From the NCBI GenBank assembly GCA_001798185.1, contig MGRM01000012.1:88120-152119 (forward strand): 64,000 bases of DNA. Reading direction: 5' to 3'. The translations under genes were made by a program, and so were the position numbers. This stretch comes from Deltaproteobacteria bacterium RIFCSPHIGHO2_02_FULL_44_16. Its GTDB lineage: Bacteria > UBA10199 > 2-02-FULL-44-16. Numbering within the stretch: position 1 is the first letter of the stretch; every line of letters begins with the position of its first letter. This document shows, piece after piece, positions 2,865-30,293 of this stretch. The notes below the pieces were generated by a model. That model was given only the letters and a program-made list of their open reading frames with translations. It was not told the origin of the DNA and made no database searches.

Positions 2865-5744
2865 ATGCGCCAGGAACTGGTCATCCGAGGGGCCCGGATG
2901 CACAATTTAAAAAATATCGATGTGACGATTCCGAAGAATAAACTCGTGGTCATTACAGGGCTTTCCGGGTCAGGGAAGTCGTCACTTGCCTTTGACACCA
3001 TCTATGCCGAAGGCCAGCGGCGCTATGTCGAATCGGTCTCAGCCTATGCTCGCCAATTCTTGGAGCAGATGGAAAAACCCGACGTCGACTCTATCGAAGG
3101 ACTCTCCCCTGCGATTTCGATCGAACAGCGCACAAGTTCCCGAAATCCTCGCTCAACGGTCGGTACCTCTACTGAAATTTATGACTATCTCCGTGTTCTC
3201 TTTGCTCGTGCGGGTCGGCCCCATTGTTACAAATGCGGACGTGCGATTCAGGCACAAACAGTTTCACAAATGATCGATCAGATTTTAAAACTCCCTTCAG
3301 GAACAAAGATCGGAATTTTAGCTCCGATCGTACGCGGCAGAAAGGGCGAATATACGAAGGATCTTGAACGACTGGCCCGACAGGGCTTTGTACGGGCGCG
3401 CGTTGATGGCAATGTGGTGTCACTCGATCAAAAAATCACGATCGATAAAAAGAAAAAACATAACATCGATCTTTATGTCGATCGGCTCGTGATTAAAGAT
3501 GATATCACCACGCGTCTTGCCGATTCTCTTGAAACTGCTCTCGGTCAAGGCGAAGGGCTTGTGAAGATTGAACTGATAAGCAATGCTGTCATTCCCGCGA
3601 AGGCGGGAATCTCAAAAAATTCACTGGATCCCCGCTTACGCGAGGATGACAATCAAGAAATTCTTTTCTCCGCAAAACATGCGTGTGCTTATTGTGGGCT
3701 CAGTTATCCCGAAATTAATCCTCAACTCTTTTCGTTCAACAGTCCTCGTGGAGCTTGCCCAGCTTGCGAAGGTCTTGGGACGCGACTCTATTTCGATCCG
3801 AATCTCGTCATTCCCAACCACAACCTTTCACTTCGCGAAGGAGCGATTGCGCCATGGCGAACAAAAGCTTCAACAGCCTATATTAATCTCTGCGAAGCGC
3901 TCGCAAAGCATTATGGATTCGATATTCGCACGGCATTTGCCAAACTTCCTCCTCACATTCAAAATGCGATTCTTATGGGTTCGGGGGAAGAAGAAATTAC
4001 CTTTGCCTTTGAAGGGACAGAACGAGAAAAAATAAAAACACGTTTTGAAGGAATCATTCCTCAACTCGAACGACGATGGAAAGAGACAAGCTCCATGGAC
4101 ATTCGTGAAGAACTCGAATGTTTTATGAATCGTCGTCCCTGTCCTACGTGCCAAGGAACTCGTCTTCGTCCTGAAGGAAGAAGTATTCTTATTGGTGGAA
4201 AAAACATTTCACACGTCACGGCATTTTCTATTCGCGAATGCATGCGTTTTATTTCGACGCTTGACCTCACCAAAAAAGAGGCAACGATTGCGGAAAAAGT
4301 TTTAAAAGAGATTCGTGAACGTCTCGGTTTTCTGATTGATGTGGGACTTGACTATCTCACACTCGATCGCACAAGTGGAACACTTTCAGGAGGAGAAGAT
4401 CAACGCATTCGACTGGCAACGCAGATTGGATCTGCACTTACGGGTGTTCTCTATGTCCTTGATGAACCTTCGATTGGTCTTCATCAACGCGATAATGATC
4501 GTCTTCTTCAAACCATGAAACGATTACGCGATTTGGGAAATACGCTTATCGTCGTTGAACATGATCGCGACACCATGGAGCACGCTGATCATATTATTGA
4601 TCTCGGGCCTGAAGCGGGTGTGAGGGGGGGCTATGTCGTTGCCACCGGAACTCCGAGTGATATCAAACGAAATTCTAAATCGCTTACCGGACAATATCTC
4701 TCTGGAAAAAAGAAAATCGATGTTCCACGAGATCGTCGCACTTCTTTGCTGGACGAACTTATTATAAAAGGAGCACGCGAGCATAATCTCAAAAACATCG
4801 ATATTTGTATTCCCTTGGGAGTTCTTACCTGCGTCACCGGAGTCTCAGGCTCGGGAAAATCGACGCTTGTGAATGAAACCCTTTTACAAGGTCTGAAGCA
4901 AAGACTCGAACAATCCAAGGAAACCGCAGGAAAGGTAGATGACATCATTGGATGGCAGAAGCTCGATAAAGTCATTGATATCGATCAGTCTCCGATTGGC
5001 CGAACTCCTCGCTCCAATCCCGCAACCTATACGAGTATTTTTACGCATATCCGCGATCTCTTTGCAGAACTCCCTCAATCGAAAGCGCGCGGATATAAAC
5101 CAGGTCGGTTTTCTTTTAACGTCAAAGGGGGCCGATGCGAAGCGTGCGAAGGCGATGGCATCATTCGAATCGAAATGCATTTTCTCCCCGACGTGCATGT
5201 CGAGTGTGAAGTCTGCGCAGGAAAACGCTTTAATCGCGAAACACTCGAGGTTCATTATAAAGGATCTTCTATTGCAGATGTTTTAAGTATGACCGTGAAT
5301 CAAGCTTTTACTTTTTTTGAAAATATTCCGTCGATTCATCATAAACTTCAAACGCTCATCGATGTTGGCATGGGCTACATTGAGCTTGGCCAATCAGCCA
5401 CAACTCTTTCAGGCGGCGAAGCTCAGCGCATTAAGCTTTCGCGCGAACTTGCGCGACGCGCAACCGGGAGAACTCTTTATATCTTAGATGAACCAACAAC
5501 TGGTCTTCACTTTGATGATGTGCGAAAACTCCTCACTGTCCTCAACCGGCTTATCGATCAAGGAAATACTATTGTCGTCATTGAGCATAACCTTGACGTG
5601 ATCATGTCTGCTGATTACTGTATCGACTTGGGACCTGAAGGGGGAGAAAAAGGTGGCTTTCTCATCGCCACAGGAACACCTGAAGAGCTTGCTGCCCACC
5701 CTACTTCATATACCGGATTTTATTTACGAGAACTTCTTTCATGA
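2865..5744 (+). CDS. uvrA: excinuclease ABC subunit A (UvrA); carries an in-frame repeat insertion
   Basis: two ABC ATPase modules ([25 protein letters not shown]; LSGGE signature twice) and zinc-finger cysteines CxxC; start taken at [17 protein letters not shown]. Confidence 0.95.
3588..3651. repeat. family-1 double-hairpin MITE-like element, inserted in-frame inside uvrA
   Basis: GTCATTCCCGCGAAGGCGGGAATC...GGATCCCCGCTTACGCGAGGATGACA; same element as the intergenic copies; adds the peptide [21 protein letters not shown]. Confidence 0.8.
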
Positions 5745-7795: not shown

Positions 7796-8068
7796 ATGTA
7801 TCACTATATTACGCTTAAAGAGTTGCGACCAAAGCTTCCCAAAGTGATTGAAAAGATTGACACAGCCCTTGAACGCTACATTATTTCCAAGCATGGAGAG
7901 CCTATTGCGATTCTTCTCGCACTCGACGATTTCGAAAGTCTTCTTGAGACTCTCAATGAACAAGAAGATAAAGAAAATTTAAAACGCATTCGAAAAGGGA
8001 TTCAAGAAGCTAAAAAAGGTAAAACCGTTGATTGGAAAAGCGTGAAGAAAAAATATCATCTTTCTTAA
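7796..8068 (+). CDS. Phd/YefM-family antitoxin
   Basis: 90 aa; YefM-like N-terminus (ITLKELRPKLPKVIEKI...ISKHGEPIAILLALDDFESLLETL). Confidence 0.7.
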   Translation: MYHYITLKELRPKLPKVIEKIDTALERYIISKHGEPIAILLALDDFESLLETLNEQEDKENLKRIRKGIQEAKKGKTVDWKSVKKKYHLS

Positions 8069-8206: not shown

Positions 8207-8467
8207 GTGTATATCCTCGAACTCACCCGACAAGCAGAGAAAGCATTCGATGTCCTCATGCATGCGCAACCCCACATGGGAAAACGGGTCGCGATTGCCC
8301 TTGATCATCTCGCCAAAGACCCAGAAATAGGTATTCCTCTTCGAGGAGTATTGAAAGGATATTACAAATATCGCGTTGGCACGTATCGGATTATTTACGA
8401 GATTCAAAAGTCAAAACTGCTTGTCATTGTCATCGACATCGGCCATCGAAAAGAGGTGTACCGTTAA
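8207..8467 (+). CDS. RelE/ParE-family toxin (GTG start)
   Basis: 86 aa; C-terminal YRIIYEI...LVIVIDIGHRKEVYR is typical of the RelE/ParE superfamily. Confidence 0.7.
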   Translation: MYILELTRQAEKAFDVLMHAQPHMGKRVAIALDHLAKDPEIGIPLRGVLKGYYKYRVGTYRIIYEIQKSKLLVIVIDIGHRKEVYR

Positions 8468-8732: not shown

Positions 8733-8756
8733 GATCCCCGTTTTCACGGGGATGAC
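8733..8756. terminator. single family-1-like hairpin overlapping the hpt stop codon
   Basis: GATCCCCGTTTTCACGGGGATGAC hairpin resembling one arm of family 1. Confidence 0.4.
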
Positions 8757-10845: not shown

Positions 10846-10915
10846 TGTCATCCTCGCGAAAGCGGGGATCCAGTGTTTTGGATATTTCTGGATTCCCGCT
10901 TTCGCGGGAATGACA
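10846..10915. repeat. family-1 double-hairpin element, copy b (intergenic)
   Basis: TGTCATCCTCGCGAAAGCGGGGATCC...GGATTCCCGCTTTCGCGGGAATGACA. Confidence 0.8.
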
Positions 10916-10919
10916 ACTT

Positions 10920-12782
10920 TCATAACACAAGAAGCAAAAGAGCAAGGAGAAAAATCACACCAAATCCCATACAGGACGCAATATAGATGAGTTCTGATCG
11001 ATGTCGCACGAGTTTCACATTTCCATGAAACATTTCTTTTAGGAATCTTAAAGTACGTGCGCGAAGGTTCGGTGATTCCAAAAGATCTGCAAGAAAATAA
11101 TATCCATCAAAATCAAGGAGAGGACAGAGATTCAAAAGAACAACAACATACGAAAGAGAAGCAAAGAGGAGCGCAAGAGAATCGAACATCGCATGATCGA
11201 TTACGAATGCCATGATCGAAGCAATCCCGGCTGGAATCATATGAGCATAAGGGCCTGCGAGTGTAACAGACATGCGGGGGAAACGTGATGCAGTCCACAT
11301 ATCAGAGGTATCGACAAAAAACATGGGGCCGACCCAATACCAGCCAAAACCGACTCCAAGCACGCGACGTTGAAAATGTTTTACCGTGAGCGCATGCCCT
11401 GCTTCGTGAAAAAGAATGCTCATGAAAAAGAGAGGAAGAAGCCACCATAACCAGATGGGAAAAGTCATCGCACGCTGAAATGCAGAAACAATCGAAACCT
11501 TCTGAGACGAAAAGGAGAAAAGACCGAAAAGGACAACAGAGCCAATAATGCATTGGCCTTTTTTGGAAAAGAACAAACAAGATATTTTTTGGAAGATGCC
11601 TGCAATCCATGCATCAACATCTGAAATATAGTATCTCCACTGAAGAATGCGTGAAAGAACACTGAAACATAAAACGAGACGGGAATGGAACGTATTCTTC
11701 AAGTCTCTTGTTTTCGCATTCCTCCCCTCAATCATGCCTGCAGCACCAAGGTCACTTATTTGCTGGGCAATCACATGAGGGGCAAAAGCTTTGTATTTTT
11801 CAAAATAGGATAAGGTGAGTTCTTTGAGTGTATGATCACCATCGAGAAGTTCCCACAAAAACAATCCTTCTGGTGTCAGCCGATAATAAAGATGCGCCGT
11901 TGGATCGTTCAGGATGAAAGAACGAATTCCATCTTTCGTTTCATATTCTTGAATGATAATTGTTTTGCGTCGGCATGGACGATCGCGAAGTTGCAAAAGA
12001 TCAATAAATTGGAGTCGGGCGCTCGGCTCATCGTGCAAGAACTGAAGCAATGCATCGCGCGAAATAACGAGTAGCTCTGAAGGTTCAACGGCTTTGACTG
12101 TCGCATTTCGTTTCTCTCCTGAAAGCAAAGCCGCTTCCCCGAATGTTGCTCCGGTTTCAAGAAAAGCGAGGGGCTTTTTATTTCCCACTTGATCTGAAGT
12201 TGTCACTTCAACTTTTCCCTGTCTCAACAGATAACATTCTGATCCCATTTCTCCCTCGCGAAGAAGAATTTCTCCTGACCGAACACTTTTCGACTGAAGA
12301 GATGTTGCAAATTTTTTGAGTCGATCAGCCGAAAGTGAAGAAAAAGGAGAGAGTTGTTTCAGAAATGAGGCTCGAAGCAATATTTCGGCCGTCTCTTCAA
12401 AAAGTTTTTTTGCATCTGGCGACTCATCAAGAGCGGCAAGAAAATCCTCACGAGAAAGTGAAAGTGCATGAAGTGTGGTAAGAGCAAATACCGAAGCGGT
12501 CCGTTTTTGATGTTTTGAAAGAAGCGCAATCTCGCCAAAATATTCTCCTGGACCAAGTGTTGCCATGACGACTGGTCCTGAGGAAGATGAAACAGCAACT
12601 TCGGCTCTCCCCTGAAGGATCAGGAAAAAGCGCTCCCCTTCTCCTCCTTCAGCGACAATCTTCACTCCGGAAGAAAAAACCTCTTCCCGAAAATGTTCTG
12701 AAAAAAAAGAAAGCGCCTTGTCGGAAAATAAAGCAAACAAGGACGCTTTCTTGAGCAACCTGACGTAATCTTTGGATGTCAT
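10920..12782 (-). CDS. membrane protein with tandem cyclic-nucleotide-binding domains fused to a site-2-protease-like M50 metalloprotease domain
   Basis: two CAP_ED-like segments (FFLILQGRAEV..GEYFGEIALL and YLLRQGKVEV..GATFGEAALLSGEKRNATVKA); C-terminal hydrophobic helices with HEAGHAL (HExxH) and LLDFDG motifs. Confidence 0.7.
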   Translation of the reverse strand: MTSKDYVRLLKKASLFALFSDKALSFFSEHFREEVFSSGVKIVAEGGEGERFFLILQGRAEVAVSSSSGPVVMATLGPGEYFGEIALLSKHQKRTASVFALTTLHALSLSREDFLAALDESPDAKKLFEETAEILLRASFLKQLSPFSSLSADRLKKFATSLQSKSVRSGEILLREGEMGSECYLLRQGKVEVTTSDQVGNKKPLAFLETGATFGEAALLSGEKRNATVKAVEPSELLVISRDALLQFLHDEPSARLQFIDLLQLRDRPCRRKTIIIQEYETKDGIRSFILNDPTAHLYYRLTPEGLFLWELLDGDHTLKELTLSYFEKYKAFAPHVIAQQISDLGAAGMIEGRNAKTRDLKNTFHSRLVLCFSVLSRILQWRYYISDVDAWIAGIFQKISCLFFSKKGQCIIGSVVLFGLFSFSSQKVSIVSAFQRAMTFPIWLWWLLPLFFMSILFHEAGHALTVKHFQRRVLGVGFGWYWVGPMFFVDTSDMWTASRFPRMSVTLAGPYAHMIPAGIASIMAFVIDHAMFDSLALLFASLSYVVVLLNLCPLLDFDGYYFLADLLESPNLRARTLRFLKEMFHGNVKLVRHRSELIYIASCMGFGVIFLLALLLLVL

Positions 12783-12792
12783 TTTATATTGA

Positions 12793-12993
12793 TTACATCC
12801 CCTTATTCATTTTTGCTGTAAGCTGTTGATCATTTAATTTCCAGTCGATCTTGCGAAATGCATTTGTTTCTTCTGCCGTTAGCTTCACACCAGTTGATTG
12901 CAATGTTCCTATCGGGTTCTTTCGCATCTTCGTTCTAAAACCAATGTCATTCGCCCACTTCTCAACTAACATTTCAATCTCTTTGCGTGCCAT
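12793..12993 (-). CDS. small paralogous peptide 1 (66 aa), NHLP/Nif11-leader-like
   Basis: MARKEIEMLVEKWANDIGFRTKMRKNPIGTLQSTGVKLTAEE...; AGGAGG RBS 6 nt upstream of the ATG; trimmed from the longer ORF. Confidence 0.6.
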   Translation of the reverse strand: MARKEIEMLVEKWANDIGFRTKMRKNPIGTLQSTGVKLTAEETNAFRKIDWKLNDQQLTAKMNKGM

Positions 12994-13006
12994 TCTTCCT
13001 CCTTGT

Positions 13007-13210
13007 TTAAGCAAGCCATTTACTGACACGTGATTGCAATTCTTGATCACTCAACTTCCAATCAATGTTTTTAAAAGCATTCATTTCTTCTGGTGTCAGC
13101 TTCACTCCTGTTGATGTAAGCGTTGCCATCGGATCTTTTCGCATCTTGGTTCTGAAACCAGCATCACTTGTCCATTTTTCGACTAACATTTCAATTTCCT
13201 TGCGCACCAT
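13007..13210 (-). CDS. small paralogous peptide 2 (67 aa)
   Basis: MVRKEIEMLVEKWTSDAGFRTKMRKDPMATLTSTGVKLTPEE...; own RBS. Confidence 0.6.
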   Translation of the reverse strand: MVRKEIEMLVEKWTSDAGFRTKMRKDPMATLTSTGVKLTPEEMNAFKNIDWKLSDQELQSRVSKWLA

Positions 13211-13240
13211 ATAACCTCCCTATGATTTTCGTTCTCATGA

Positions 13241-13438
13241 CTAATACTTATTTATCCTTGCCTTAAGTTCTTCGTCATTTAAACTCCAGTCAATTTTGCG
13301 AAATGCACCCATTTCTTCGTTTGTTAGTTTCACTCCTGTCGATGTGATCGTTCCCATTGGATCTTTGCGCATCTTTGTTCGGAATCCCATATCATTCGTC
13401 CATTTCTCAACCAATCCTTCAATCTCCTTGCGCACCAT
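13241..13438 (-). CDS. small paralogous peptide 3 (65 aa)
   Basis: MVRKEIEGLVEKWTNDMGFRTKMRKDPMGTITSTGVKLTNEE...; AGGAGG RBS. Confidence 0.6.
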   Translation of the reverse strand: MVRKEIEGLVEKWTNDMGFRTKMRKDPMGTITSTGVKLTNEEMGAFRKIDWSLNDEELKARINKY

Positions 13439-13453
13439 ATATCCTCCTTTTGA

Positions 13454-13654
13454 TCAAGGTATCTTAGAAACTCTGGTTTTTAGTTCCTCATCACTTAGTT
13501 TCCAATCAATCTTGCGGAACACTGACATTTCTTCGGGGGTAAGTTTCACTCCCGTTGTTTGCAACGTGTCCTCAGGATTCTGCCGCATGTTCTTGCGAAA
13601 CATCTGGTCGTTCATCCACTTGTCGAACAACATGTCGATTTCTTTTTTTCCCAT
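13454..13654 (-). CDS. small paralogous peptide 4 (66 aa)
   Basis: MGKKEIDMLFDKWMNDQMFRKNMRQNPEDTLQTTGVKLTPEE...; GGAGGAGG RBS; trimmed from the longer ORF. Confidence 0.6.
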   Translation of the reverse strand: MGKKEIDMLFDKWMNDQMFRKNMRQNPEDTLQTTGVKLTPEEMSVFRKIDWKLSDEELKTRVSKIP

Positions 13655-14621
13655 CGTCCTCCTCCTTTGAAAAAAATGAAGCGTTGCGAATAAGCTTCTG
13701 CAGCACTTTTGCTGCAGGCTCAAAAGGTCGCGCTTCCATAAGCGCAGAACGTGCTTTCTCGCAATAAATTTCAGTCACAATCGCTGTCATCCACTTTGCT
13801 CCTGTTGCACTCAGCTGTGTTTGAATTGCACGTCGACTTTTGAGAGAAGATTTTGCATCTTGAAGCGACGTCAAAAAAATTTGCTTTTCCACTCCCTTCA
13901 AACGCTCGAGACAAAAAGCGATTGGAAAGGTTCTCGTGCCATTGGAGATATCCTTACTCTGTTGAGATTCAAAAAGATCATAACAATCTGACGAAAGTTG
14001 ACCCGCAACACCAAGAGCCCTGGCGTATGCCATATAATGTTCAACACATTCTGGATGAGCATTTGCCGTATGTGCTGCAAGGGCTGCAAACATCGCTAAT
14101 TCCTCGCCACTCTTTTTCATGACACTTAACTCAACTGCGTTCGTCGATACTTTACTCTTGTTCACAGATGCAATGTCTTGTTGCTGTCCATCGCTCATGA
14201 TGAGGAGCCCACGCGCAATCGTTTCATGCATGAGATTTTTCTGCTCATGCGAAAGAGAGAGTTTTGCAAGAAGAAGGTGAGGAAACGTGCTGACAAGTGT
14301 TGTTCCTAATATCAATCCTTCTTGAGGAGTTAATTTTCCCTCGTGTTGCAAATCTCCATCCGCAAGATCATCGAGGATATCGATTCCCAAATAGAGTATT
14401 GACGTGAGAACTGGAAGCAAGATGGGAACTTTTTTTGCGGTAATCCCCTCATAGACAGCCGATGGAAGCGAAATAAAGAAAAGTTCACTCTCTTCCGAAA
14501 CGTAGGTTTGAAGACGTTCAACAGCATATGCAAAAAGCCGTCGCTGTTCAGAAGATTGCGACCAGGAAGAGAGTTCATCTTGAAGACGTGACAGAACTTC
14601 AGATGTTTCCGAAGACTTCAA
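13572..14621 (-). CDS. trans-isoprenyl diphosphate synthase-like (polyprenyl synthetase fold) protein
   Basis: first Asp-rich motif DILDDLADGD at the expected position; second motif degenerate (GQLSSDCYDLFE); the 3' end overlaps peptide 4 by about 80 nt in another frame. Confidence 0.55.
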   Translation of the reverse strand: MKSSETSEVLSRLQDELSSWSQSSEQRRLFAYAVERLQTYVSEESELFFISLPSAVYEGITAKKVPILLPVLTSILYLGIDILDDLADGDLQHEGKLTPQEGLILGTTLVSTFPHLLLAKLSLSHEQKNLMHETIARGLLIMSDGQQQDIASVNKSKVSTNAVELSVMKKSGEELAMFAALAAHTANAHPECVEHYMAYARALGVAGQLSSDCYDLFESQQSKDISNGTRTFPIAFCLERLKGVEKQIFLTSLQDAKSSLKSRRAIQTQLSATGAKWMTAIVTEIYCEKARSALMEARPFEPAAKVLQKLIRNASFFSKEEDDGKKRNRHVVRQVDERPDVSQEHAAES

Positions 14622-15899
14622 TCACTTTCCTCCCGTTGTTGTTTTCAAAATTGCACCCGTATTTGTCGCTGTATTTCCGCAAGCTGCGTATCCAACAAGA
14701 TCACTCACCATTTCGATTTTTTGCACAATGTAGGTTGTATTGCTCGTTTGAGCCGTCCATGTTGTGCCAGAGTTTTCAGAATAAAGAATGGTTCCATTGA
14801 ATCCACCAGCCCAAATCTTCTCACTACGAACATCCAGCGCAGAAATATCTTCGGTCGTTCCTGTTGTCAGCACGGTCCAGGTGGCAGCAGCATCTGTCGT
14901 TTTTGCAATGAGTCCACCCTCTCCTCCGATATAGCACGTATTCACATCTGAACAGGAAACTTCATGCAGATCACAACTATCGGGATCTGAATTGGGACAG
15001 GTGAACGTACTTGAAATATTTGTCCACGTTGTTCCTCCATCAGTCGTTTCAAGAATTGCCGCGCGATTTCCGACAGCATAGCCATTTGAGGTATCGGCAA
15101 AAAAGATACGATTGATTTCGTCATTTGTTCCTGTTGTTTGAGTATCATAGACTGTCGTCCATGTGCTTCCACTATTGGTGGTTTTCAGAATAAAACTGAC
15201 ATTGCCACTATAACCTCCGGCAGCATAACCGGTATTTTCATCGAAAAAGAAAAGAGAATTCACACGATCAAGTGTTGTTAAACTTCGATTGGGAAATGCA
15301 GTCACCGTATTGAATTGAGAACTCCAACTCGTGCCACCGGTTGTCGTGACCCAGATCGATGCTCCTAAATTAACGGAATCCTGTCCGCCAATCCAGACAT
15401 GTGTGGTAGTAACAGGAGCAACTGCCCGGAGCCGTGAAGCAGAGAGTGTTGAAAAATCGAGACGAGTTGAAGTAGTGCCACTATCAGTTGATTTGAGCAC
15501 TTCGCCCAAACTTCCAACTGCCCAACCATTCGTCGTATCGGAATCGACAATCGCAATATCAAAATCACCAGAAGATGATCCTTGCGTCACTCCACCTGTT
15601 GCAATGAGACCACTTTGATCGGTGCCGATAAAATCGGTCCCGTCAATGACCGTACCACTGGATGTCACTACATCCCAAGCAGAGGCTGTACTCGTTGTCG
15701 TAGAACTCGTGCTTGTTGTTGAACTTGAGCCGCAGGCGAAAATGAAAAAACAGATAGAAAAAAGAAGACAAGATCGAACAACTGGCATCATCCCCCCTGC
15801 TGTTGTTTTTATGTGTTTAGCTCTTTTTGGTAGAGATGACAAGGTTTTCGTACCCGTTGTCATTCTGAACGGAGTGAAGAATCTCGTTGAGATCTTCAT
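14622..15899 (-). CDS. secreted BNR/Asp-box repeat beta-propeller protein (Ycf48-like)
   Basis: signal peptide, Ser/Thr-rich linker, at least 5 SxDxGxTW-type repeats (TDGGTTWTN, TNSGSTWTT, TTGGTSWSS, ENSGTTWTA). Confidence 0.6.
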   Translation of the reverse strand: MKISTRFFTPFRMTTGTKTLSSLPKRAKHIKTTAGGMMPVVRSCLLFSICFFIFACGSSSTTSTSSTTTSTASAWDVVTSSGTVIDGTDFIGTDQSGLIATGGVTQGSSSGDFDIAIVDSDTTNGWAVGSLGEVLKSTDSGTTSTRLDFSTLSASRLRAVAPVTTTHVWIGGQDSVNLGASIWVTTTGGTSWSSQFNTVTAFPNRSLTTLDRVNSLFFFDENTGYAAGGYSGNVSFILKTTNSGSTWTTVYDTQTTGTNDEINRIFFADTSNGYAVGNRAAILETTDGGTTWTNISSTFTCPNSDPDSCDLHEVSCSDVNTCYIGGEGGLIAKTTDAAATWTVLTTGTTEDISALDVRSEKIWAGGFNGTILYSENSGTTWTAQTSNTTYIVQKIEMVSDLVGYAACGNTATNTGAILKTTTGGK

Positions 15900-15965
15900 G
15901 GGATCCTTCCCCGCTAAGAATCGTGGCGGGTCAGGATGACATCAAGAATGATTTTGCAACAGAAC

Positions 15966-17126
15966 CTAGATTCGATTCTCTTTTGTCTCTTCAATCAATT
16001 TTCCTAAAAACTTCTCATAGTCCGTGCCACCAGTGGCAATAGGACCGCGACCTTTCTTTTTGATGTACTGAATCGCTGCTTCCAGATGCAACATTCGAAA
16101 TGCGGCAAGAGCGTCATGAGCTTCGTTAAAAGCTTTCCGAATATTTGCGTCAGTTTTATTTTTTGTGGCATAGGCGCGTAGTGAAGGACCAGCTTCGATC
16201 GCGAGAATCCATTCACGTTCGCGTGGAGCACGATAATCTTTGAGCTCTGTTAAGTGATCAATCAACTCACTCGGCTGATGATGTACGCCGAGCACACAAT
16301 CAAATGAAATAATAGACGGCGACTCAGCGCCTGTCTCCCCCTTCAATCGTTCAAAATGTCCAACACCTTCATAGGTAATATCTTGAAAGTAAAAGATCCA
16401 AGGACGAACATGTTTGAAATAGACTTCAGGACTACAGACACTCGGAATGGTTTTGAATGTCTCTCCCATATCGAGCAATGCATGGTGCATGCTGTTCAAA
16501 GCATTGATAAAACCCTCTTTGTTCTCATTTACCACCGCAAGTTGCGCTGCCGGAATTGCACGGAGCCCAGGCGCGGCTTTGGCCTCGATTTCAACGTGCG
16601 GCAAGATGAAACCATATTCGTCACGCGTATAAGGTGGAATCGTAAAATGTTGAATGAGTTTTAAATTCTCAAAACGGATCGGTTTTTTTTGATCAACACG
16701 AGTCCAATTCTGCGTTGCATACATATTGTAAGCAAGAATTGGTTGCATATTGAGTTTCTTGCCAAGCTTTACAAAAGGAATTGCAAGTCCTTGCGGCATA
16801 TTTTTCGCATGTGGAGCATCGATGTCATTGACACAATCAGCCCAAGCATACGCACTCGTAAGAAAACAGAGGTGACGAAATGCCACAAGCGCTGCTTCAT
16901 GATTCATTTTTTCAACTGGCAACACCGGGATTTTTTCAAGCTTCGCACGAATCGTCCCATCATAGAGCATCTGCGGAAGTTCAGCCGCAAGGTCATCATA
17001 AAGCGCAAACTCTTCGTTGCCTTTCGGAAGTTTTGGAAGTGGGTCTGGGTACGGTAGAAATCCTCGATCTTCACGAACAAGATCGTTGTCGATAAATTGA
17101 AGTGCTGGAACTTGCTGTGTCATCAC
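15966..17126 (-). CDS. indoleamine 2,3-dioxygenase family protein (heme dioxygenase)
   Basis: C-terminal GPIATGGTDYEKFLGKLIEETKE parallels eukaryotic IDO ...[20 protein letters not shown]; the central YEGVGHFERLKGETGAESPSIISFDCVLGV parallels IDO ...[31 protein letters not shown]. Confidence 0.7.
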   Translation of the reverse strand: MMTQQVPALQFIDNDLVREDRGFLPYPDPLPKLPKGNEEFALYDDLAAELPQMLYDGTIRAKLEKIPVLPVEKMNHEAALVAFRHLCFLTSAYAWADCVNDIDAPHAKNMPQGLAIPFVKLGKKLNMQPILAYNMYATQNWTRVDQKKPIRFENLKLIQHFTIPPYTRDEYGFILPHVEIEAKAAPGLRAIPAAQLAVVNENKEGFINALNSMHHALLDMGETFKTIPSVCSPEVYFKHVRPWIFYFQDITYEGVGHFERLKGETGAESPSIISFDCVLGVHHQPSELIDHLTELKDYRAPREREWILAIEAGPSLRAYATKNKTDANIRKAFNEAHDALAAFRMLHLEAAIQYIKKKGRGPIATGGTDYEKFLGKLIEETKENRI

Positions 17127-24090: not shown

Positions 24091-24111
24091 TTGAGAAAAA
24101 AGAGGCTTATA

Positions 24112-24741
24112 ATGCCCCGCTACCCCATAATTCATATTCCCGACGGAATTTATTCAGTAACCAGCAAATGCAACAATAATGAATTTCTCTTTGACGCTGA
24201 AGAGAAGTTTCAATTGTATTTACATCATCTCCTAGAATGTAAACGCAAATTGAATTTCATTATCTATGATCTCTGTTGTATGTCGAACCATGTGCATGAA
24301 CTTTATCGTGTCACCCGTGGAATTACGATTGCGGATATTCTTCACACCGTTCGTGGACATTTTTCTCAAAAATTTAATACTCGTTTTGGGCGAAGCGGAC
24401 ATTTTTGGAAAAGCAAACCTTACTATCGTATTGTTGAAGACGAGCAATATGCATTTCATCTCATGAATTATTTTCACTTAAATCCTGTAAAGGCCGGCCT
24501 TGTTGATAAACCTGAAAATTGGCCTTATTCAGGATATCGCTTTCATATGCTCGGGGACCGAAAAGGACTTATGGGGAGACTACTTAATCAAATTCCTGGA
24601 ACTTCGAAATCCACAACATCAGTCGATTCTGAAAACTTGTATTTGAACAAGTTACTTCAACGACGTCGATTACGATTTATTGGAACAGAAGAGTTTATAA
24701 ACAGCATGCAGACAAGATATAAACGAGATAGCGAGAAATAA
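24112..24741 (+). mobile_element. REP-associated tyrosine transposase (RAYT, IS200/IS605 TnpA-like HUH Y1 transposase)
   Basis: MPRYPIIHIPDGIYSVTS N-terminus; HuH motif SNHVHEL; YFHLNPVKAGLVDKPENWPYSGY catalytic-Tyr motif; flanked by REP palindromes. Confidence 0.8.
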
Positions 24742-24819: not shown

Positions 24820-27468
24820 TTGACACCGTTCTTCATATCAGCACAAATCTCTCCCATGCCAATAACCTTGATCACAGGCCCGGTAGGCTCAGGGAGAACC
24901 ACTCTTCTTTTTGAAAAACTTTCGGATGCGCTTGCCAAAGGGAAAGCGGTTTACATTGCCCCCAATGAAACACTGGCAACTGAGCTTCGTACGGCGTTTC
25001 TTTCCTTTCTTGAAGAGAGTGGAAAGCGCGCAGCGCTCGTGGGCGACATTTTTCTCTCTCTTCGCAGCTTTGTTTATCGTCTGACACAAAAAACACCGAC
25101 GATGACTTCATTTCAGCAAACTCTTCTCTGTTTTGAGCTTCTTCAATCACAACAGCTCCGCTATTTCGATCCTCATCACATTTCATTTCAAATCGCTCGA
25201 GATGCAGCGAGCAGCATTCATACACTAAAGAAAAACGGAATTTCTCCGGAGCAACTTGAAGTCCTTCTCGAAACTCGTGGTTCATTACAGGAGTACGACC
25301 TCCTCACTCTTTTTAAACGTTATGAAACAAAACGAGAGGACCTTCATCTTCTCGACGAAGGTGATCTTTTTCAAAGGGCTTGCAGCCTTTCATATACAGG
25401 AGAGATATTTGTCGATGAATTTACTCATCTTCAACCAGGCGAACGGACTCTTTTCCAAAACCTTGCAGCGCAGACACACATGCATCTCACGCTTCCCGAA
25501 GCTGATGATGAGCATCAACCTTTTGCCTCTTTTTTGAAAAAATCAATCAGTACCCTTCAACCACTCACTCACACACATCAACAATTACCAAAAAAAAATC
25601 ATGAAATGGCGCAAACCACGCTTCTTTCGTTACGTTCTTCTTTAGATGAAACACGATTTTGTCTTCAACAACTCCTTGGGACTGAGGATGAATCTTTTTC
25701 ACCTGCCATGATCGTCACTCGGCAGCGATCTGCTTTTCCAAAAATCTTATTTCAAGAATGGAAAAACGTGCAAAACCCAGAAAGAGCGCCAGCTCCGGTT
25801 TCTCGAATCTTTTCCGAAATCCTTCAGATTTCGTTACCAGAAGAGGCTTCACTGCTTACGTTTGCGGAACAACTTCGTAAATCATTGCAACCCACGCACA
25901 GCGATCCTTCTCTGCATCTTCGTTTCTTACATCTTCTTCAGACTCTCTCTGCACAAGCACATCTCCTTCAATTGAAAACATTTTCGCGAACCGAATTTTA
26001 TGAAATCATTCAATTTCATTTGGAACAAGAGAACATCCATCAACCACAACTCCCCTTCGAGACACGGAGTTTTGAAAGAAGTATTTCACAACCACACCCG
26101 AGAATCATCATTCCTGAAATGAACGAAGGGAATATTCCTTTTCTTGCTCCGGAACATTTTTTCTTCTCAGACCAGCTCGACTTCTCAGCCTCTCCAAACC
26201 CTCTGTTAGATGAAATTTTTCCTGCAGCAGATCAACTATTAGCACTGGATGCTTTTCGATTTTATACGTTTCTCACGAAAGCTACCGAAGAAGTTGTGCT
26301 GACCTTTTCTCTTCTCGATCACAAAGGGCAGGAAACAATCCCGTCCTCTTTTGTCAAAAACTTTGGTCCCCCACTGCCCATAGAATCTCAGGTTTTTTCA
26401 CCTGAAGCTCTGCAGACCCTCGGAACAGAGGCGCTTCTTCAGCGCATCACTATTGAGCAAGAGCGAAGAGCGATGCGAAAAGATCATCTCTCCTACCACG
26501 GTCTTATTCAAGACCCGGAAGCGCGAAAGCTCCTCAAAGAGCGCTTTACTCAGGAATGTTTCAGTCCCTCTCGTCTTGAAACCTACGCTGAGTGTCCGAT
26601 GCGTTTCTTTTTTGAAAAAGTTTTAGGACTCAAACCTGAAGAAGAGATCACTCCTGAAGTTCAACCCAAAGACCGAGGAACTATTATTCATGCTCTTCTA
26701 GAATGCTTTTATCGCGACTATCGCAATCTTTTTTCAGCGGCGCTTACTGATGCTTCAAAAGAGAAAGAGATCTCAGCACTTCTCGATCAACTTCTGGATG
26801 AAGTTTTTCTTCAGCACGATCATCTCTTGCAACAAAGCGCTCCGGCGCTTCGCCCCTTTGAACGAAAAGCTATTCGAAAAGTGATTGAAAAAACACTTTT
26901 CCTCGAACTTGAAACAGCCCGCGCTCTCTCAACTCCTCTCTTGCCTTCACACTGTGAGTGGATTTTTGGAACAGAACACGTAAAACCACTTTCGCTTTCT
27001 CTCGAAAATGATGATGACATTTTGATTCAAGGACGTGTCGATCGTATCGATGTGTCGCACGATGGTTCTTCTTTTCTCATTGTCGATTACAAAACCGGAA
27101 AATCGATTGAAAGCATTCGAAAAAAAATTGAAGATGGGCTTCATCTTCAAATTCCACTGTATATTGCCGCAGTCCAAAAACTTCTTCTTCCACACGCTTC
27201 CGCTCTTGGCGGACTTCTGTTTGCGGTCATGAAAGGTGAAAAGACCTCAGGCATGTTGAAAAAAGAACATAACGAAAAAAGTTTTTCCCTTTCATCTCGT
27301 TCGCGCGCGTTGATTTCGGAAGAAGAGTGGGAAGATCTTTTAGAGACAAGTTTCAAATATACCCGTGACTATGTCACCGCGATACGAAATGGAAATTTTT
27401 CACATCTGACATCTGAGCCGTGCAAGTACTGTACATTCGCACAAGCGTGTCGCAGAGGAACGTCATGA
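24820..27468 (+). CDS. AddB/RexB-like helicase-nuclease subunit (PD-(D/E)xK nuclease)
   Basis: N-terminal Walker A GPVGSGRTT; C-terminal nuclease motif RVDRIDV...IVDYKTGK and cysteine cluster C..C..C..C; the true start may be at the internal Met at 24856. Confidence 0.65.
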   Translation: MTPFFISAQISPMPITLITGPVGSGRTTLLFEKLSDALAKGKAVYIAPNETLATELRTAFLSFLEESGKRAALVGDIFLSLRSFVYRLTQKTPTMTSFQQTLLCFELLQSQQLRYFDPHHISFQIARDAASSIHTLKKNGISPEQLEVLLETRGSLQEYDLLTLFKRYETKREDLHLLDEGDLFQRACSLSYTGEIFVDEFTHLQPGERTLFQNLAAQTHMHLTLPEADDEHQPFASFLKKSISTLQPLTHTHQQLPKKNHEMAQTTLLSLRSSLDETRFCLQQLLGTEDESFSPAMIVTRQRSAFPKILFQEWKNVQNPERAPAPVSRIFSEILQISLPEEASLLTFAEQLRKSLQPTHSDPSLHLRFLHLLQTLSAQAHLLQLKTFSRTEFYEIIQFHLEQENIHQPQLPFETRSFERSISQPHPRIIIPEMNEGNIPFLAPEHFFFSDQLDFSASPNPLLDEIFPAADQLLALDAFRFYTFLTKATEEVVLTFSLLDHKGQETIPSSFVKNFGPPLPIESQVFSPEALQTLGTEALLQRITIEQERRAMRKDHLSYHGLIQDPEARKLLKERFTQECFSPSRLETYAECPMRFFFEKVLGLKPEEEITPEVQPKDRGTIIHALLECFYRDYRNLFSAALTDASKEKEISALLDQLLDEVFLQHDHLLQQSAPALRPFERKAIRKVIEKTLFLELETARALSTPLLPSHCEWIFGTEHVKPLSLSLENDDDILIQGRVDRIDVSHDGSSFLIVDYKTGKSIESIRKKIEDGLHLQIPLYIAAVQKLLLPHASALGGLLFAVMKGEKTSGMLKKEHNEKSFSLSSRSRALISEEEWEDLLETSFKYTRDYVTAIRNGNFSHLTSEPCKYCTFAQACRRGTS

Positions 27469-30293
27469 ATCAGCAGGTTTTTACAGAAGCGCAAAGTCAA
27501 GCCATCCAGAAAGATGGCTCCATTGCGGTTTTGGCAGGAGCTGGATCTGGAAAAACAAGAGTTCTCATTGAACGATGCAAGCGACTTCTTTTTGAAAAGA
27601 ATATTTCGTTCGATCGTTTTCTGATCATGACCTTTACGGAAAAAGCAGCCGGAGAACTGAAAGAGCGCCTTCGTCCTCTCCTCTCTCCCCAAGATATCCC
27701 TTTACTTGAACGAGCATGGATCGGAACTTTTCATAGCTTTTGCGCACGCGTGCTGCGACTTCATGCCCCTCTTTTAAAACTCGACCCCTCTTTTCACATC
27801 CTCGAGGAAAATCGCGCAGACTTCATGATTCATCAACTTATTGATCAAACGCTTTTTTCTTCTCTGGAACATAAACAGCCTGAAGCTCTTCTTCTGATGG
27901 AATGTTTTGGATACCGCAATACAGTGCAGCTTCTCGAAGAGCTCATGGGATTTCGATGGCATGTCACTCGTTATCTTTCTCAGGGCCAAGATGACGTGAT
28001 CAGAGCCTGTTTTACTCTTTTTCAAGCTGTGGAGAAAAAATTCCAGCAACAGCTTCAAAAAGAGAGAAGCCTCGATTTTCAGGAACTCGAGCGTTACACG
28101 CTCACACTTTTTCAAGAGCATCCTTCCATATTACGCGAATATCAAAAACGATTTCTCCATCTTTTGGTAGATGAATTTCAGGACACCAATGACCTTCAAA
28201 CAGAACTGATCACCCTTCTTTTTCATCCCAAGATAAATCATCTTTTTATTGTCGGCGATCCTCGCCAATCCATTTACCGATTTCGAGGTGCCAATCTCAC
28301 TTCATTTTTTACGATGATCTCTCGTATTCGCGAAAGTGGAGGAGAACTGATTGCGTTATCAGAGAATTTCAGAACACGACCACATATTATAGATTTAATC
28401 AATATCACCGCCCGTCCACTTGAAGAAAATCTCTCGCTTCATGCTGACCTCCGTCCCTTTCGAAAAGAGCGAGATCAAAAAGATATCACCCTTCTTCAGT
28501 GTCATACGTCAGAAAGTTCAATAGCAGAGAGACGTCATAAAGAAGCAACGTGCATTGCAGCACATATTCGTGAACTCGTTGACGTCGAACATATTCCTTA
28601 CGGAAATATAGTCTGTCTCTTTCAGGCGATGACCAGTATCGATATTTACGAGCAAGCATTTCAACAACATCAGATTCCCTATCGTATTCATGGAAGCCGG
28701 CATTTCTTAGGAAGTAGTGAAATTCAGGATCTCCTTTGCACTCTTCTTTTTGCGGCCAACCCAAAAAATGATACTGCCCTCATGGGACTTGTTCGCTCGC
28801 CTCTTTTGGGACTTTCTGATGATGAATGTGTTTTGCTTTCCGGAAAAGAAGGAAAAGATTTTCGAAAAAATATTTTACATCACGCTCACGCAGGTCCTTT
28901 TTTAAAAAAACTCTCCTCCCTTCAAAAAAGCATGCTCCCTTCGGAAATTCTTTCGTGGGTTTTACAAACAACGGGATATGAGTGGATCTGCGCACAGCTC
29001 GATCCTTCAGGAAAAAAACGGGCTCATCTTGAACAATTTCTCACGTTATTACGATCTCTCGAAACAGAATCTTTTCTTTCTCTTCCTGCATGCGTCGATT
29101 ATCTTCAGGATCTTTGCGAACGAGAAGCTCGCTTTGGAGATGCGCCTGCGTCTGCAGACAGTAGCAATGTTGTTCATTGCATGAGTGTGCACGCGGCGAA
29201 GGGACTTGAATTTCCGATCGTCATTTTGCCCGATCTCATTCGTCGCGCATCTCTCTCCACGAAGCCGTGGTGTTTTATTCGAAACCGAGGACTTGGACTC
29301 AAATTACACAATCCCGATTCCCCTTTTGACTCACTTGTCGCAACCAAAAGCTATGAAGAGCTTCACTCGCTGAATAACAAAGAAGAAGAACAAGAATCTC
29401 GTCGTTTGTTGTATGTGGCCATGACCCGCGCAAAAGATCGATTGATCCTTCCGATCCACCAAGATGAAAAAATTCGCGGAGAGTGGCATGGTTGGCTTCT
29501 TCCAGCACTGAAGCAAATATCTGCTTTTACGGTAAACACTCAGCTCCCAGAAAACGAAGAAAAAACTTTCTCACGTGAAAAAGTTGAATTACCTCTGACA
29601 TATAAAGTACCAAAAAACACTTCACGTTTTCTCCATCAATCTCCCATCATCAGTGTTTCTGAAATTGAAACATACGACCGTTCTCCTGAAGAATATGAGC
29701 AAAAATATATTTTCGGTTTTTCTCCTGAACTCACACTCCCAAATTCAGAAACTCTCTCTCCTACTCTTTATGGATCTCTTCTCCATGAAGCGCTCGAAAT
29801 ACTTTCGCACTCTTCCACCGACTCGATTGCGACAGCTTTGACAGATGCATGTCACTCACACCATCTCATCCCCGAGGCCTCATGGATGAGCTCACTGACA
29901 ACAACACTTGAACCGTTTATGACGACTTTCGGTACACAGTTTTGCGAAGGAGAACATGAACTGCGCTTTGATTGGAAACGAAAGGACAGTATCATCACCG
30001 GAAAAGTCGATTGGCTCCGACCAAAAAACGGAGGATATGAAATCATTGATTTTAAAACAGACCGAACTTTCAACGGATCAATTGAGGAACATGCAAAAAT
30101 GTATGATCTTCAAATGATGATCTATGCACTTGCATTAGAAGAAGGCCTTGGACTTTCCATTCTTGAAACAACGCTTTATTTTCTGGAAACAGGAAAAACC
30201 ATTTCAACACCGATGACAGTTCAACGAAAAAAAGAGGGAAAAAAACGCCTTGCAGCGATTCTTAAAAAAATGTGCGGTGAATTTATATCTTAG
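27465..30293 (+). CDS. UvrD-family helicase with C-terminal PD-(D/E)xK nuclease (AddA/RexA-like)
   Basis: GAGSGKT Walker A, DEFQDT, UvrD motifs; C-terminal IIDFKTD...Y nuclease; start overlaps the upstream stop. Confidence 0.75.
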   Translation: MNQQVFTEAQSQAIQKDGSIAVLAGAGSGKTRVLIERCKRLLFEKNISFDRFLIMTFTEKAAGELKERLRPLLSPQDIPLLERAWIGTFHSFCARVLRLHAPLLKLDPSFHILEENRADFMIHQLIDQTLFSSLEHKQPEALLLMECFGYRNTVQLLEELMGFRWHVTRYLSQGQDDVIRACFTLFQAVEKKFQQQLQKERSLDFQELERYTLTLFQEHPSILREYQKRFLHLLVDEFQDTNDLQTELITLLFHPKINHLFIVGDPRQSIYRFRGANLTSFFTMISRIRESGGELIALSENFRTRPHIIDLINITARPLEENLSLHADLRPFRKERDQKDITLLQCHTSESSIAERRHKEATCIAAHIRELVDVEHIPYGNIVCLFQAMTSIDIYEQAFQQHQIPYRIHGSRHFLGSSEIQDLLCTLLFAANPKNDTALMGLVRSPLLGLSDDECVLLSGKEGKDFRKNILHHAHAGPFLKKLSSLQKSMLPSEILSWVLQTTGYEWICAQLDPSGKKRAHLEQFLTLLRSLETESFLSLPACVDYLQDLCEREARFGDAPASADSSNVVHCMSVHAAKGLEFPIVILPDLIRRASLSTKPWCFIRNRGLGLKLHNPDSPFDSLVATKSYEELHSLNNKEEEQESRRLLYVAMTRAKDRLILPIHQDEKIRGEWHGWLLPALKQISAFTVNTQLPENEEKTFSREKVELPLTYKVPKNTSRFLHQSPIISVSEIETYDRSPEEYEQKYIFGFSPELTLPNSETLSPTLYGSLLHEALEILSHSSTDSIATALTDACHSHHLIPEASWMSSLTTTLEPFMTTFGTQFCEGEHELRFDWKRKDSIITGKVDWLRPKNGGYEIIDFKTDRTFNGSIEEHAKMYDLQMMIYALALEEGLGLSILETTLYFLETGKTISTPMTVQRKKEGKKRLAAILKKMCGEFIS

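Follow-up and report, generated by a model that had tools for sequence, protein, structure and literature searches.

A putative peptide-modification cassette of tandem Os1348-family peptides, an isoprenyl diphosphate synthase-like protein and a cyclic nucleotide-binding M50 protease in a Deltaproteobacteria genome

Which of the closely packed genes surrounding four small, related peptides in Deltaproteobacteria bacterium RIFCSPHIGHO2_02_FULL_44_16 belong together, and what might they make? The genes in question lie on the minus strand of a 64,000-nt stretch of contig MGRM01000012.1 (positions 88,120 to 152,119, GenBank assembly GCA_001798185.1), hereafter termed the window, to which all coordinates below refer. 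An earlier annotation, referred to here as the sequence-only reading, placed six to seven of them (10920–17126) in a single operon resembling those for ribosomally made, post-translationally modified peptides (RiPPs). It comprised four peptides, a membrane protease of family M50 with cyclic nucleotide monophosphate (cNMP)-binding domains, an isoprenoid-synthase-like protein, a BNR-type propeller, and a homologue of indoleamine 2,3-dioxygenase (IDO) that was proposed to oxidise peptide tryptophan. The comparisons described below lead to a smaller set. Judged by sequence conservation, the unit that is retained consists of the tandem precursors, an enzyme resembling isoprenyl diphosphate synthases (IDS) of the trans type, and a protease in which cNMP-binding domains, a putative RiPP recognition element (RRE) and an M50 domain are fused; it spans 10920–14621.

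The conserved unit and its distribution

A check of open reading frames (ORFs) recovered on the minus strand every ORF previously described, with unchanged coordinates and order, and searches with hidden Markov models (HMMs) from Pfam and NCBIfam upheld the domain calls. The genes of the conserved unit, and the motifs within them that are discussed below, are as follows.

13572–14621, minus strand: trans-IDS-fold (polyprenyl_synt-like) protein, 349 residues, TTG start; PF00348, E = 5e-12, 46 bits
14352–14381, minus strand: first Asp-rich motif of this protein, DILDDLADGD, residues 81–90 (alignment of 36 homologues)
13977–14000, minus strand: its pseudo second Asp-rich motif, QLSSDCYD, residues 208–215, first Asp replaced by Ser (36 homologues)
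13454–13654, minus strand: precursor peptide 1, 66 residues, tail IP; NF038399, 51.6 bits
13241–13438, minus strand: precursor peptide 2, 65 residues, tail Y; NF038399, 52.0 bits
13007–13210, minus strand: precursor peptide 3, 67 residues, tail WLA; NF038399, 62.8 bits
12793–12993, minus strand: precursor peptide 4, 66 residues, tail GM; NF038399, 51.3 bits
10920–12782, minus strand: fusion of two cyclic nucleotide-binding domains (CNB-A and CNB-B), a putative PqqD-like RRE and an M50 domain, 620 residues; PF00027 twice, 4e-43
11988–12782, minus strand: the two cNMP-binding domains, approximately residues 1–265, with phosphate-binding cassettes FGEIALL..KRTAS and FGEAALL..KRNAT
11733–11969, minus strand: the putative PqqD-like RRE, approximately residues 272–350, recognised from a weak PF05402 match, homologue annotation and model topology
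11394–11408, minus strand: the HEAGH zinc motif, residues 459–463, with the third ligand, D559, in LLDFDGYY

With regard to conservation, this arrangement was compared with 36 loci in which an IDS-like relative is encoded, together with a Rhodoferax locus found via the protease; once duplicates were removed, approximately 30 independent loci remained (individual loci are given L numbers where they need to be told apart). The hosts are Elusimicrobia, Armatimonadota, Chloroflexota, Eremiobacterota, a 'Deltaproteobacteria' metagenome-assembled genome (MAG), Rhodoferax and Methanoregula. Locus content was assessed by tblastn with the window proteins and, for four long loci, from Pfam tables. In most loci between one and seven peptide genes adjoin the IDS-like gene, and the cNMP–RRE–M50 gene is present in approximately 19, many of the other contigs being too short to tell. 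Gene order varies, with peptides–IDS–M50, IDS–peptides–M50 and mixed arrangements all represented. All-against-all clustering of ORFs across the loci returned the IDS-like and M50 proteins as the only recurrent families, with no conserved exporter or further enzyme; MacB/FtsX genes occur only in L001 and L005, and a radical-SAM gene only in L001.

Given that the window peptides score 51–63 bits against NF038399 and that the trio recurs in approximately 30 independent loci, the arrangement is far beyond what would be expected by chance. The ties that had been drawn between the peptides and each of the two larger genes are thereby borne out, as both the IDS-like gene and the cNMP–M50 gene show close and widespread co-conservation with them. 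Of the neighbourhood as originally described, the peptide, IDS-like and M50 genes are the part that is conserved, whereas IDO and BNR accompany them in none of the independent loci compared; similarly, the RiPP-like frame is supported by co-conservation of the trio, but tailoring by IDO or BNR is not. Each of the four peptide genes in the window is preceded by an AGGAGG-type ribosome-binding site, as the sequence-only reading had stated, and the 3′ end of the IDS-like ORF shares an overlap of 83 nt with peptide 1. Since comparable overlaps between the IDS-like and peptide genes are found in L010, L020 and L022, the overlap is characteristic of the family rather than erroneous.

Components of the cassette and a proposed pathway

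Alignment of 49 peptides reveals a conserved domain of exactly 64 residues, without insertions or deletions and with a single exception (63 residues in L025); the Methanoregula outlier described below was left out of this count. Invariant or nearly invariant positions are L9, W13, F19, R20, P27, G35, L38, E42, D50, W51, D55, L58, R61 and K64. The domain terminates in R-[VI]-[SN]-K, with no GG cleavage motif in any of the aligned peptides, and is followed by a hypervariable tail that is mostly 1–5 residues long and seldom as many as 21. The window peptides, which end in IP, Y, WLA and GM, are 59–75 % identical to one another over the 64-residue domain, and hence less alike than the 'near-identical' of the original description. 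Paralogues from the same locus have domain identities of 52–92 % and almost always differ in their tails. Some tails nevertheless turn up again in loci far apart, with four occurrences for each of IP, GM and FFS and three for each of M and AV. Most tails, including IP, GM, M, AV and FFS, possess no nucleophilic side chain.

These peptides had been likened to leaders of the NHLP/Nif11 type, and membership of the NHLP clan is upheld. All four exceed the cutoff of 40 bits for NF038399, the family of Os1348-like NHLP clan proteins (51.3–62.8 bits), as did 30 of 30 homologous peptides tested, and a profile of the family matches the crystal structure of Os1348 in the PDB (6LK7, E = 8.4e-8) followed by nitrile hydratase alpha subunits (3e-5). 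The specific leader models, by contrast, are not reached: window peptides score 15–21.5 bits against TIGR03793 (NHLP leader, cutoff 50.9), 14.7–19.6 bits against TIGR03798 (Nif11-like leader, cutoff 32.3) and 14.5–27.3 bits against PF14407 (Frankia_peptide, gathering score 48), although precomputed PF14407 matches, some of them weak, are recorded for homologous peptides. The two conserved tryptophans, earlier put forward as invariant sites of modification, do not constitute a dedicated acceptor pair. W13 is the generic Trp of the NHLP 'KAW.D..F' signature and W51 is specific to this sub-family, some members of which have F or L instead. When K64, W51 and R61 were considered as a universal prenyl acceptor, each was ruled out by its substitution in some loci.

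A number of additional observations concern the peptides. All four window peptides show a weak similarity (E = 6e-5 to 0.02, model positions 1 to approximately 57) to TIGR04517, the model for PoyD-type radical-SAM epimerases, suggesting that these enzymes bear an NHLP-like segment at their N-terminus. In L026 (3019–4858) and L027 (450–2289), only one precursor is found beside two IDS-like paralogues in tandem; its tail of 21 residues, TSGWEGYCPWITNMGTFSGPA, is unusually long and rich in Trp, Cys and Tyr, and may represent a variant with side-chain acceptors. Finally, the Methanoregula MAG harbours, on the strand opposite to its IDS-like gene (L013, 10840–11391, minus strand), a 189-residue peptide homologue in which an NHLP-like domain precedes a long, low-complexity insertion rich in Gly and Asp; no M50 gene lies within 10 kb.

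The IDS-like protein retains an Asp-rich motif, as first noted, and scores above the PF00348 cutoff (46 bits, cutoff 27), with the match covering only positions 85–240 of the profile and leaving the N-terminal third unmatched. Among 36 homologues, D84 and D88 of the first Asp-rich motif are invariant and D81, D85 and D90 nearly so. In the second motif, for which the canonical form is FQxxDDxxD, Q208 and D212 are invariant and S211 and D215 nearly so, such that DDxxD has become SDCYD. Alignment to 1wy0 demonstrates that the RRG following the first motif is replaced by (E)HW; the GQxxD motif is retained in the family, and KSG stands where KT would be expected. The AlphaFold2 model is of high confidence (predicted local distance difference test, pLDDT, 91.3), with a disordered tail at residues 328–349, and its best PDB folds in Foldseek are trans-IDS enzymes (geranylgeranyl diphosphate (GGPP) and polyprenyl diphosphate synthases; template modelling (TM) score 0.72–0.75, 13–19 % identity). 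A profile of the family also matches the indole prenyltransferase Ord1 (9V4G, 1.4e-10), and scores against the NCBIfam synthase equivalogs all fall far below their cutoffs. The retention of the first Asp-rich motif, together with the loss of RRG and of the first Asp of the second motif, fits a protein that would still bind and ionise an allylic diphosphate but no longer condense isopentenyl diphosphate (IPP). By analogy, it is a candidate peptide-modifying prenyltransferase of a distinct clade. Approximately 40 relatives at around 40 % identity are found among 90 % clusters, and a set of 1.84 billion 50 % clusters contains 381 representatives at E ≤ 1e-30; a search of a plasmid collection returned no homologue. 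A family 2B encapsulin system was also considered and rejected, as matches to the shell (NF041163) and cargo (NF041169) models reach only 91 and 58 bits against cutoffs of 400 and 450 and no shell gene is present; these matches reflect nothing beyond cNMP and IDS domains held in common.

The third component adds a feature that the sequence-only reading had overlooked, namely a probable PqqD-like RRE between the cNMP-binding and M50 domains. In the window protein the PF05402 match is weak (residues 290–333, E = 0.01; 16.6 bits, cutoff 23.4); residues 276–347 of the AlphaFold2 model (pLDDT 86.9 for the fusion) form three strands (276–302) followed by three helices (304–347), which is the RRE topology. 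Most homologues carry PF00027, PF05402 and PF02163, and NCBI lists two of them under the name 'PqqD family peptide modification chaperone'. The remainder of the model consists of two beta-barrel CNB domains, which resemble the tandem CNB of PKA-R in Foldseek, and a helical membrane domain containing HExxH. An alignment of 35 homologues demonstrates that H459, E460, H463, D559 and G560 of the M50 domain are invariant, so that the HExxH protease assignment holds (HEAGH at residues 459–463, FDG at 558–560), even though PF02163 itself is below cutoff in the window protein (23.3 against 27.2) and precomputed only in homologues. In the same alignment G83, R94, A96, E216, A217 and R225 of the cNMP cassettes are invariant; both domains have intact phosphate-binding cassettes with conserved Gly-Glu and Arg-x-Ala. 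NF041824, the model for the daptide RRE-site-2 protease (S2P) peptidase, spans the putative RRE and the M50 domain with 129 bits over residues 295–616 (cutoff 300). The previously noted association of double-cNMP proteins with NHLP/Nif11 systems is visible here solely as a sub-threshold match to TIGR03896, the bacteriocin-type transport-associated double-cNMP protein (72.3 bits against 161).

A distant homologue of the cNMP domains (34 % identity), without a recognised M50 domain, was encountered in L044 (6091–9692). The start of its gene precedes by 4 nt the stop codon of a gene for a CHASE2-guanylate/adenylate cyclase, which suggests that the two form a dedicated cyclase–sensor pair in that lineage; in the window, no cyclase gene was seen among the ORFs scanned (up to approximately 44.5 kb).

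On balance, and without great confidence, we favour a three-component cassette of the RiPP type as the explanation for the observed domain identities, conserved catalytic residues, co-conservation and tail pattern. In such a cassette an IDS-like peptide prenyltransferase would follow the logic of PalQ and ComQ, and release would be by proteolysis in the manner of RRE-S2P or TglG-like enzymes. The 64-residue domain would serve as leader or scaffold, docking on the RRE and, probably, on the IDS-like enzyme. The latter would ionise an allylic diphosphate and attach the prenyl chain in or close to the C-terminal tail of the precursor, in the manner of PalQ with PalX and ComQ with ComX, following which the lipidated C-terminus would move into the membrane. 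There, the M50 domain would cleave at or near the R-x-S-K junction and free a very short lipidated peptide or amino-acid derivative, with binding of cAMP or cGMP to the N-terminal domains gating the protease. With several precursors that differ in their tails, the outcome may be a small library of products, acting as signals or antimicrobials. We infer each enzymatic step, along with step order, acceptor and cleavage site, by analogy to characterised systems.

A series of observations weighs against this pathway. The characterised trans-IDS-like peptide prenyltransferases all act on Trp (PMC13290415), yet Trp is present in one of the four window tails and in few tails elsewhere. Substitution of W51 affects 4 of the 49 peptides, with F in the pair from L019 and L in those from L001 and L007 that carry the FFS tail; K64 gives way to A, H or L in L003, L018, L024 and L042, and no residue of the C-terminal region is universal across the alignment; as no universal acceptor is seen, prenyl transfer to the peptide stands as an analogy. 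No M50 gene was found in the available sequence of L010, L013, L009/L023 and L030. Moreover, 'Deltaproteobacteria bacterium GWA2_38_16' has a solo IDS-like homologue (35 % identity; L009 1076–2089, equivalent to L023 9950–10963) with neither a peptide nor an M50 gene within 10 kb, which represents either a remnant or a member whose partners are not linked to it. To these may be added BNR, which may have a local accessory role given its translational coupling to the IDS-like gene. Regarding the acceptor, the alternatives are a new one (the C-terminal carboxylate, the backbone or a conserved residue), W51 with the W51-less variants as non-substrates, or a different enzyme activity altogether. 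That the cassette defines a new RiPP or pearlin-like class, with IDS-fold lipidation of a non-Trp acceptor on cores of 1–5 residues and cAMP/cGMP-gated release by an S2P, is put forward only tentatively, as a proposal that is rather unlikely to hold in full.

Neighbouring genes and rival explanations

Outside the conserved unit, the following features complete the region.

15966–17126, minus strand: IDO-family haem dioxygenase; PF01231, E = 4e-58, 197.6 bits against a cutoff of 26
14622–15899, minus strand: ORF of the BNR/Ycf48-like beta-propeller, likely gene 14622–15791; PF14870, 9e-18, 65 bits
10850–10911: two GC-rich palindromic hairpins resembling repetitive extragenic palindromic (REP) elements, between the M50 stop codon and a pyrE-like gene

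The stop codon of BNR abuts the TTG start of the IDS-like gene, with the junction reading GGGAGGAAAGTGATTG and a GGGAGGA Shine-Dalgarno sequence residing inside the 3′ end of BNR. This makes it probable that, in this organism, BNR and the cassette share a transcript. The propeller itself is probably a lipoprotein, as the likely start at 15791 provides a lipoprotein-type signal ending in FIFAC and matches the gene call of 389 residues in L040. It passes only the general PSII_BNR domain model PF14870, its score against the Ycf48 equivalog NF010237 being 68.8 bits compared with a cutoff of 326. With this start, the distance between IDO and BNR is probably 174 nt and not 66, exceeding the gaps of 0–66 nt given earlier for the whole group. 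Downstream of the hairpins are the pyrE-like gene, pyrF and hpt; upstream of IDO are a 232-residue protein of unknown function and two tRNA genes, which were the sole matches of an Rfam scan. Promoter and terminator scans returned nothing above background apart from the hairpins, which probably mark the 3′ boundary of the transcription unit.

The sequence-only reading treated all six to seven genes as one pathway, in which IDO would oxidise peptide Trp to N-formylkynurenine or kynurenine, the IDS-like protein would prenylate and BNR would take part. In its favour are the shared strand and close spacing, including the BNR junction, the near invariance of W13 and W51, and an IDO–BNR–IDS-like order that is repeated in L040 and partly in L041, which covers the cassette from the gene upstream of the IDS-like gene onward. 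L040 and L041, however, are the same organism at 100 % identity, and consequently provide no independent evidence. Same-strand packing is likewise weak evidence, since housekeeping genes (pyrE-like, pyrF, hpt and tRNAs) flank the group on the same strand, and the likely 174-nt gap separates IDO from BNR. When window IDO and BNR were used as tblastn queries against the 36 loci and the Rhodoferax locus, no homologue was found for up to 10 kb in any of the approximately 30 independent cassettes, and the Pfam tables of the four long loci contain neither; both were therefore rejected as conserved members. The nearest relatives of IDO on usable contigs (57–62 % identity) reside in unrelated neighbourhoods, being located between mur genes and an Rrf2-IscS-NifU cluster on two Patescibacteria-type contigs and flanked by TauE and Pyr_redox_2 genes on a third, whilst the best match, P0041, has only neighbours of unknown function. 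In the literature searched, no precedent was found for a peptide as the substrate of an IDO. Of the two tryptophans, W13 belongs to the general NHLP signature and W51 gives way to F or L in some members. It is thus very unlikely that the entire group constitutes one pathway, and that IDO tailors these peptides is equally hard to credit; adjacency is the whole of the support for Trp-to-kynurenine chemistry. From the comparison of loci, IDO and BNR are lineage-specific neighbours outside the conserved unit, and the most striking element of the original proposal, a Trp dioxygenase as tailoring enzyme, is probably a mere neighbour.

Two further explanations accept the trio but assign it a different purpose. 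M50/S2P enzymes classically function in regulated intramembrane proteolysis, and the cassette could be a signalling module wherein a cNMP-gated S2P cuts small cytoplasmic NHLP-fold proteins, much as anti-sigma factors or adaptors are cut, with the IDS-like protein acting as a non-catalytic partner or membrane-lipid enzyme. The cNMP sensor domains do imply control by a signal, the distant cNMP-domain homologue of L044 is translationally coupled to a cyclase gene, and no dedicated exporter is conserved, MacB/FtsX being confined to two loci. Against this, up to seven tandem paralogues differing mainly in a tail of usually 1–5 residues are the typical pattern of a precursor library and not of regulators, an RRE, as is probable here, is a hallmark of RiPP enzymes, the invariant catalytic Asp, Gln and Lys of the IDS-like protein argue against a pseudo-enzyme, and no DNA-binding or sigma-factor gene is conserved nearby; a signalling role of this kind appears improbable. 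Alternatively, the IDS-like protein might generate a free terpenoid or prenyl diphosphate, the peptides being only proteolysed or serving as carriers or chaperones, and any link between lipid and peptide being indirect. PF00348 above cutoff, GGPP and polyprenyl diphosphate synthases as best PDB matches, the sub-threshold match of 58 bits to the polyprenyl-transferase cargo model of family 2 encapsulins, and tails without an obvious prenyl acceptor are all consistent with this. Nevertheless, the Pfam match is limited to the C-terminal two-thirds of the model (positions 85–240), RRG and the first Asp of the second motif are lost, the proteins form a separate clade that is approximately 40 % identical internally and 13–19 % identical to solved synthases, and there is no encapsulin shell gene. 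The IDS-like gene strictly adjoins, and often overlaps, the peptide genes in approximately 30 loci across phyla, and a free isoprenoid product is likewise unlikely. The reading that we prefer remains prenylation of the precursors within a RiPP-type cassette.

Other observations are recorded here for their own sake. In both L037 and L038, which are Patescibacteria-type groundwater contigs from reduced genomes, the closest IDO clade is found immediately upstream of the Rrf2-IscS-NifU iron–sulfur cluster operon. In the Rhodoferax MAG (L042, 12151–12792), a gene of the ICMT/PEMT family (isoprenylcysteine carboxyl methyltransferase-like) lies approximately 3 kb from the cassette within a copper-ATPase/HMA cluster; it is probably unrelated, although it is worthy of mention given the prenylated C-termini proposed above. 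Within the window, the GC-rich palindromic repeat, with core TCCCCGCTTTCGCGAGGAT and variants thereof, is present in five copies where 0.03 would be expected (two back to back at 10850–10911, directly after the M50 stop, and one each at 3629–3647, 8735–8753 and 39599–39617). In-frame translation of the repeat accounts for the 'SRESGNPE...DPRFREDD' segment at the N-terminal end of the pyrE-like ORF, which is over-long. The repeat is probably a REP-like or miniature inverted-repeat transposable element (MITE)-like element or a terminator. Adjacent small ORFs at 7796–8068 and 8207–8467 (both plus strand) resemble, by eye, a Phd/YefM-type antitoxin of 90 residues and a RelE/ParE-type toxin of 86 residues, the latter containing '...YKYRVGTYRIIYEI...'. 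Lastly, an IS200-like Y1 transposase gene (24091–24741, plus strand; PF01797, 1.2e-7) adjoins an AddAB-type helicase–nuclease pair (24820–30293).

Significance and comparison with known systems

Should the proposed pathway be correct, it would extend the acceptor range of isoprenoid-synthase-fold peptide prenyltransferases past tryptophan and introduce a new RiPP architecture, in which the leader peptidase is composed of cNMP sensor, RRE and S2P domains. It would also define a widespread family, of approximately 380 clusters at the 50 % identity level, with members distributed over bacterial phyla and in at least one methanogen; its products may be very small lipidated peptides with signalling or antimicrobial roles. 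If cAMP/cGMP-gated release were also to hold, this would be the first RiPP maturation under second-messenger control. The fixed 64-residue scaffold with short, recurring tails (IP, GM, M, FFS) additionally makes for an experimentally tractable system. In the searchable literature, which excludes subscription-only papers, no account was found of the triad, of precursors with a fixed scaffold and mini-tail, or of a cNMP-sensor–peptidase fusion. Taken singly, the family of the precursors, peptide prenyltransferases of the IDS-like kind and RRE-S2P peptidases are all known; it is their combination that is undescribed there.

The closest precedents for the enzyme, which the sequence-only reading did not recognise, are PalQ/PalX and the ComQ/ComX pair of Bacillus, in which the gene for an isoprenoid-synthase-fold enzyme likewise stands beside that of its ribosomal precursor. 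The PalQ gene of Paenibacillus alvei adjoins PalX, a precursor of the NHLP type whose NHLP domain enhances prenylation of a C-terminal Trp (PMC10853753), and both the 'trans-IDS-like' prenyltransferases ComQ, PalQ and ChrPC and the indole prenyltransferase Ord1 have been described as binding and ionising an allylic diphosphate without IPP condensation (PMC13290415, PMC12510300). The window peptides share with PalX an NHLP-type domain, which in PalX is recognition-enhancing, and the site proposed for modification is similar to that of the PalQ and ComQ substrates, at or near the C-terminal end. Going by published descriptions, the window enzyme also resembles ComQ, PalQ and ChrPC in having a conserved Gln (here Q208) just upstream of a degenerate second Asp-rich motif. 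The differences are nonetheless considerable. PalQ, ComQ and ChrPC all prenylate Trp, whereas most tails here have none; the precursors, unlike PalX and ComX, are members of the Os1348 sub-family, in which a domain of fixed length (64 residues) carries tails of mostly 1–5 residues; the partner is a cNMP–RRE–M50 protease and not a histidine kinase; and the enzyme apparently forms a clade of its own, which PF00348 still detects.

For the protease, the nearest counterpart is MpaP of the daptides, in which an RRE fused to an intramembrane S2P removes the leader after C-terminal chemistry (bioRxiv 10.1101/2023.03.08.531785). The window protein probably has the same N-terminal fusion of RRE to intramembrane M50, with the 129-bit NF041824 match extending across both, and daptide clusters similarly contain several precursor genes and modify the precursor C-terminus, as is proposed here. 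In contrast to MpaP, the window protein falls below the NF041824 cutoff (129 against 300) and has two additional cNMP-binding domains. Homologues of MpaB, MpaC, MpaD and MpaM were not found in the window region, and the peptides lack the ELExMEAP motif and invariant C-terminal Thr of daptide precursors. A second likeness is to the pearlin and 3-thiaglutamate pathways, where TglG and TmoG, membrane-bound M50 enzymes, free modified amino acids from the C-termini of scaffold peptides (PMC10885120). By description, a long conserved peptide in these pathways bears a very short unit at its C-terminus, and this unit is first modified and then set free by an M50 protease in the membrane, much as is proposed here. 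Unlike pearlins, the present cassette has no PEARL (tRNA-dependent ligase), its C-terminal residues are genetically encoded and its modifying enzyme has the IDS fold.

The precursors themselves are most akin to Os1348, an 85-residue presumed precursor from cluster OS3 of Pseudomonas sp. Os17, where it is encoded together with a GNAT, a HExxH protein and a dehydrogenase of the SagB type (PMC7726476; PDB 6LK7). Both systems have a precursor of family NF038399 with a PF14407-like signature as well as a HExxH peptidase; the Os1348 cluster differs in the length of its precursor (85 residues) and in the soluble nature of its HExxH protein, and is without an IDS-like enzyme, M50 or cNMP domains. Finally, tandem cNMP-binding domains encoded beside NHLP-clan precursors are also a property of TIGR03896 systems, but whilst the proteins of that family accompany a C39-ABC exporter, the cNMP domains of the cassette described here are fused to a putative RRE-M50 protease.

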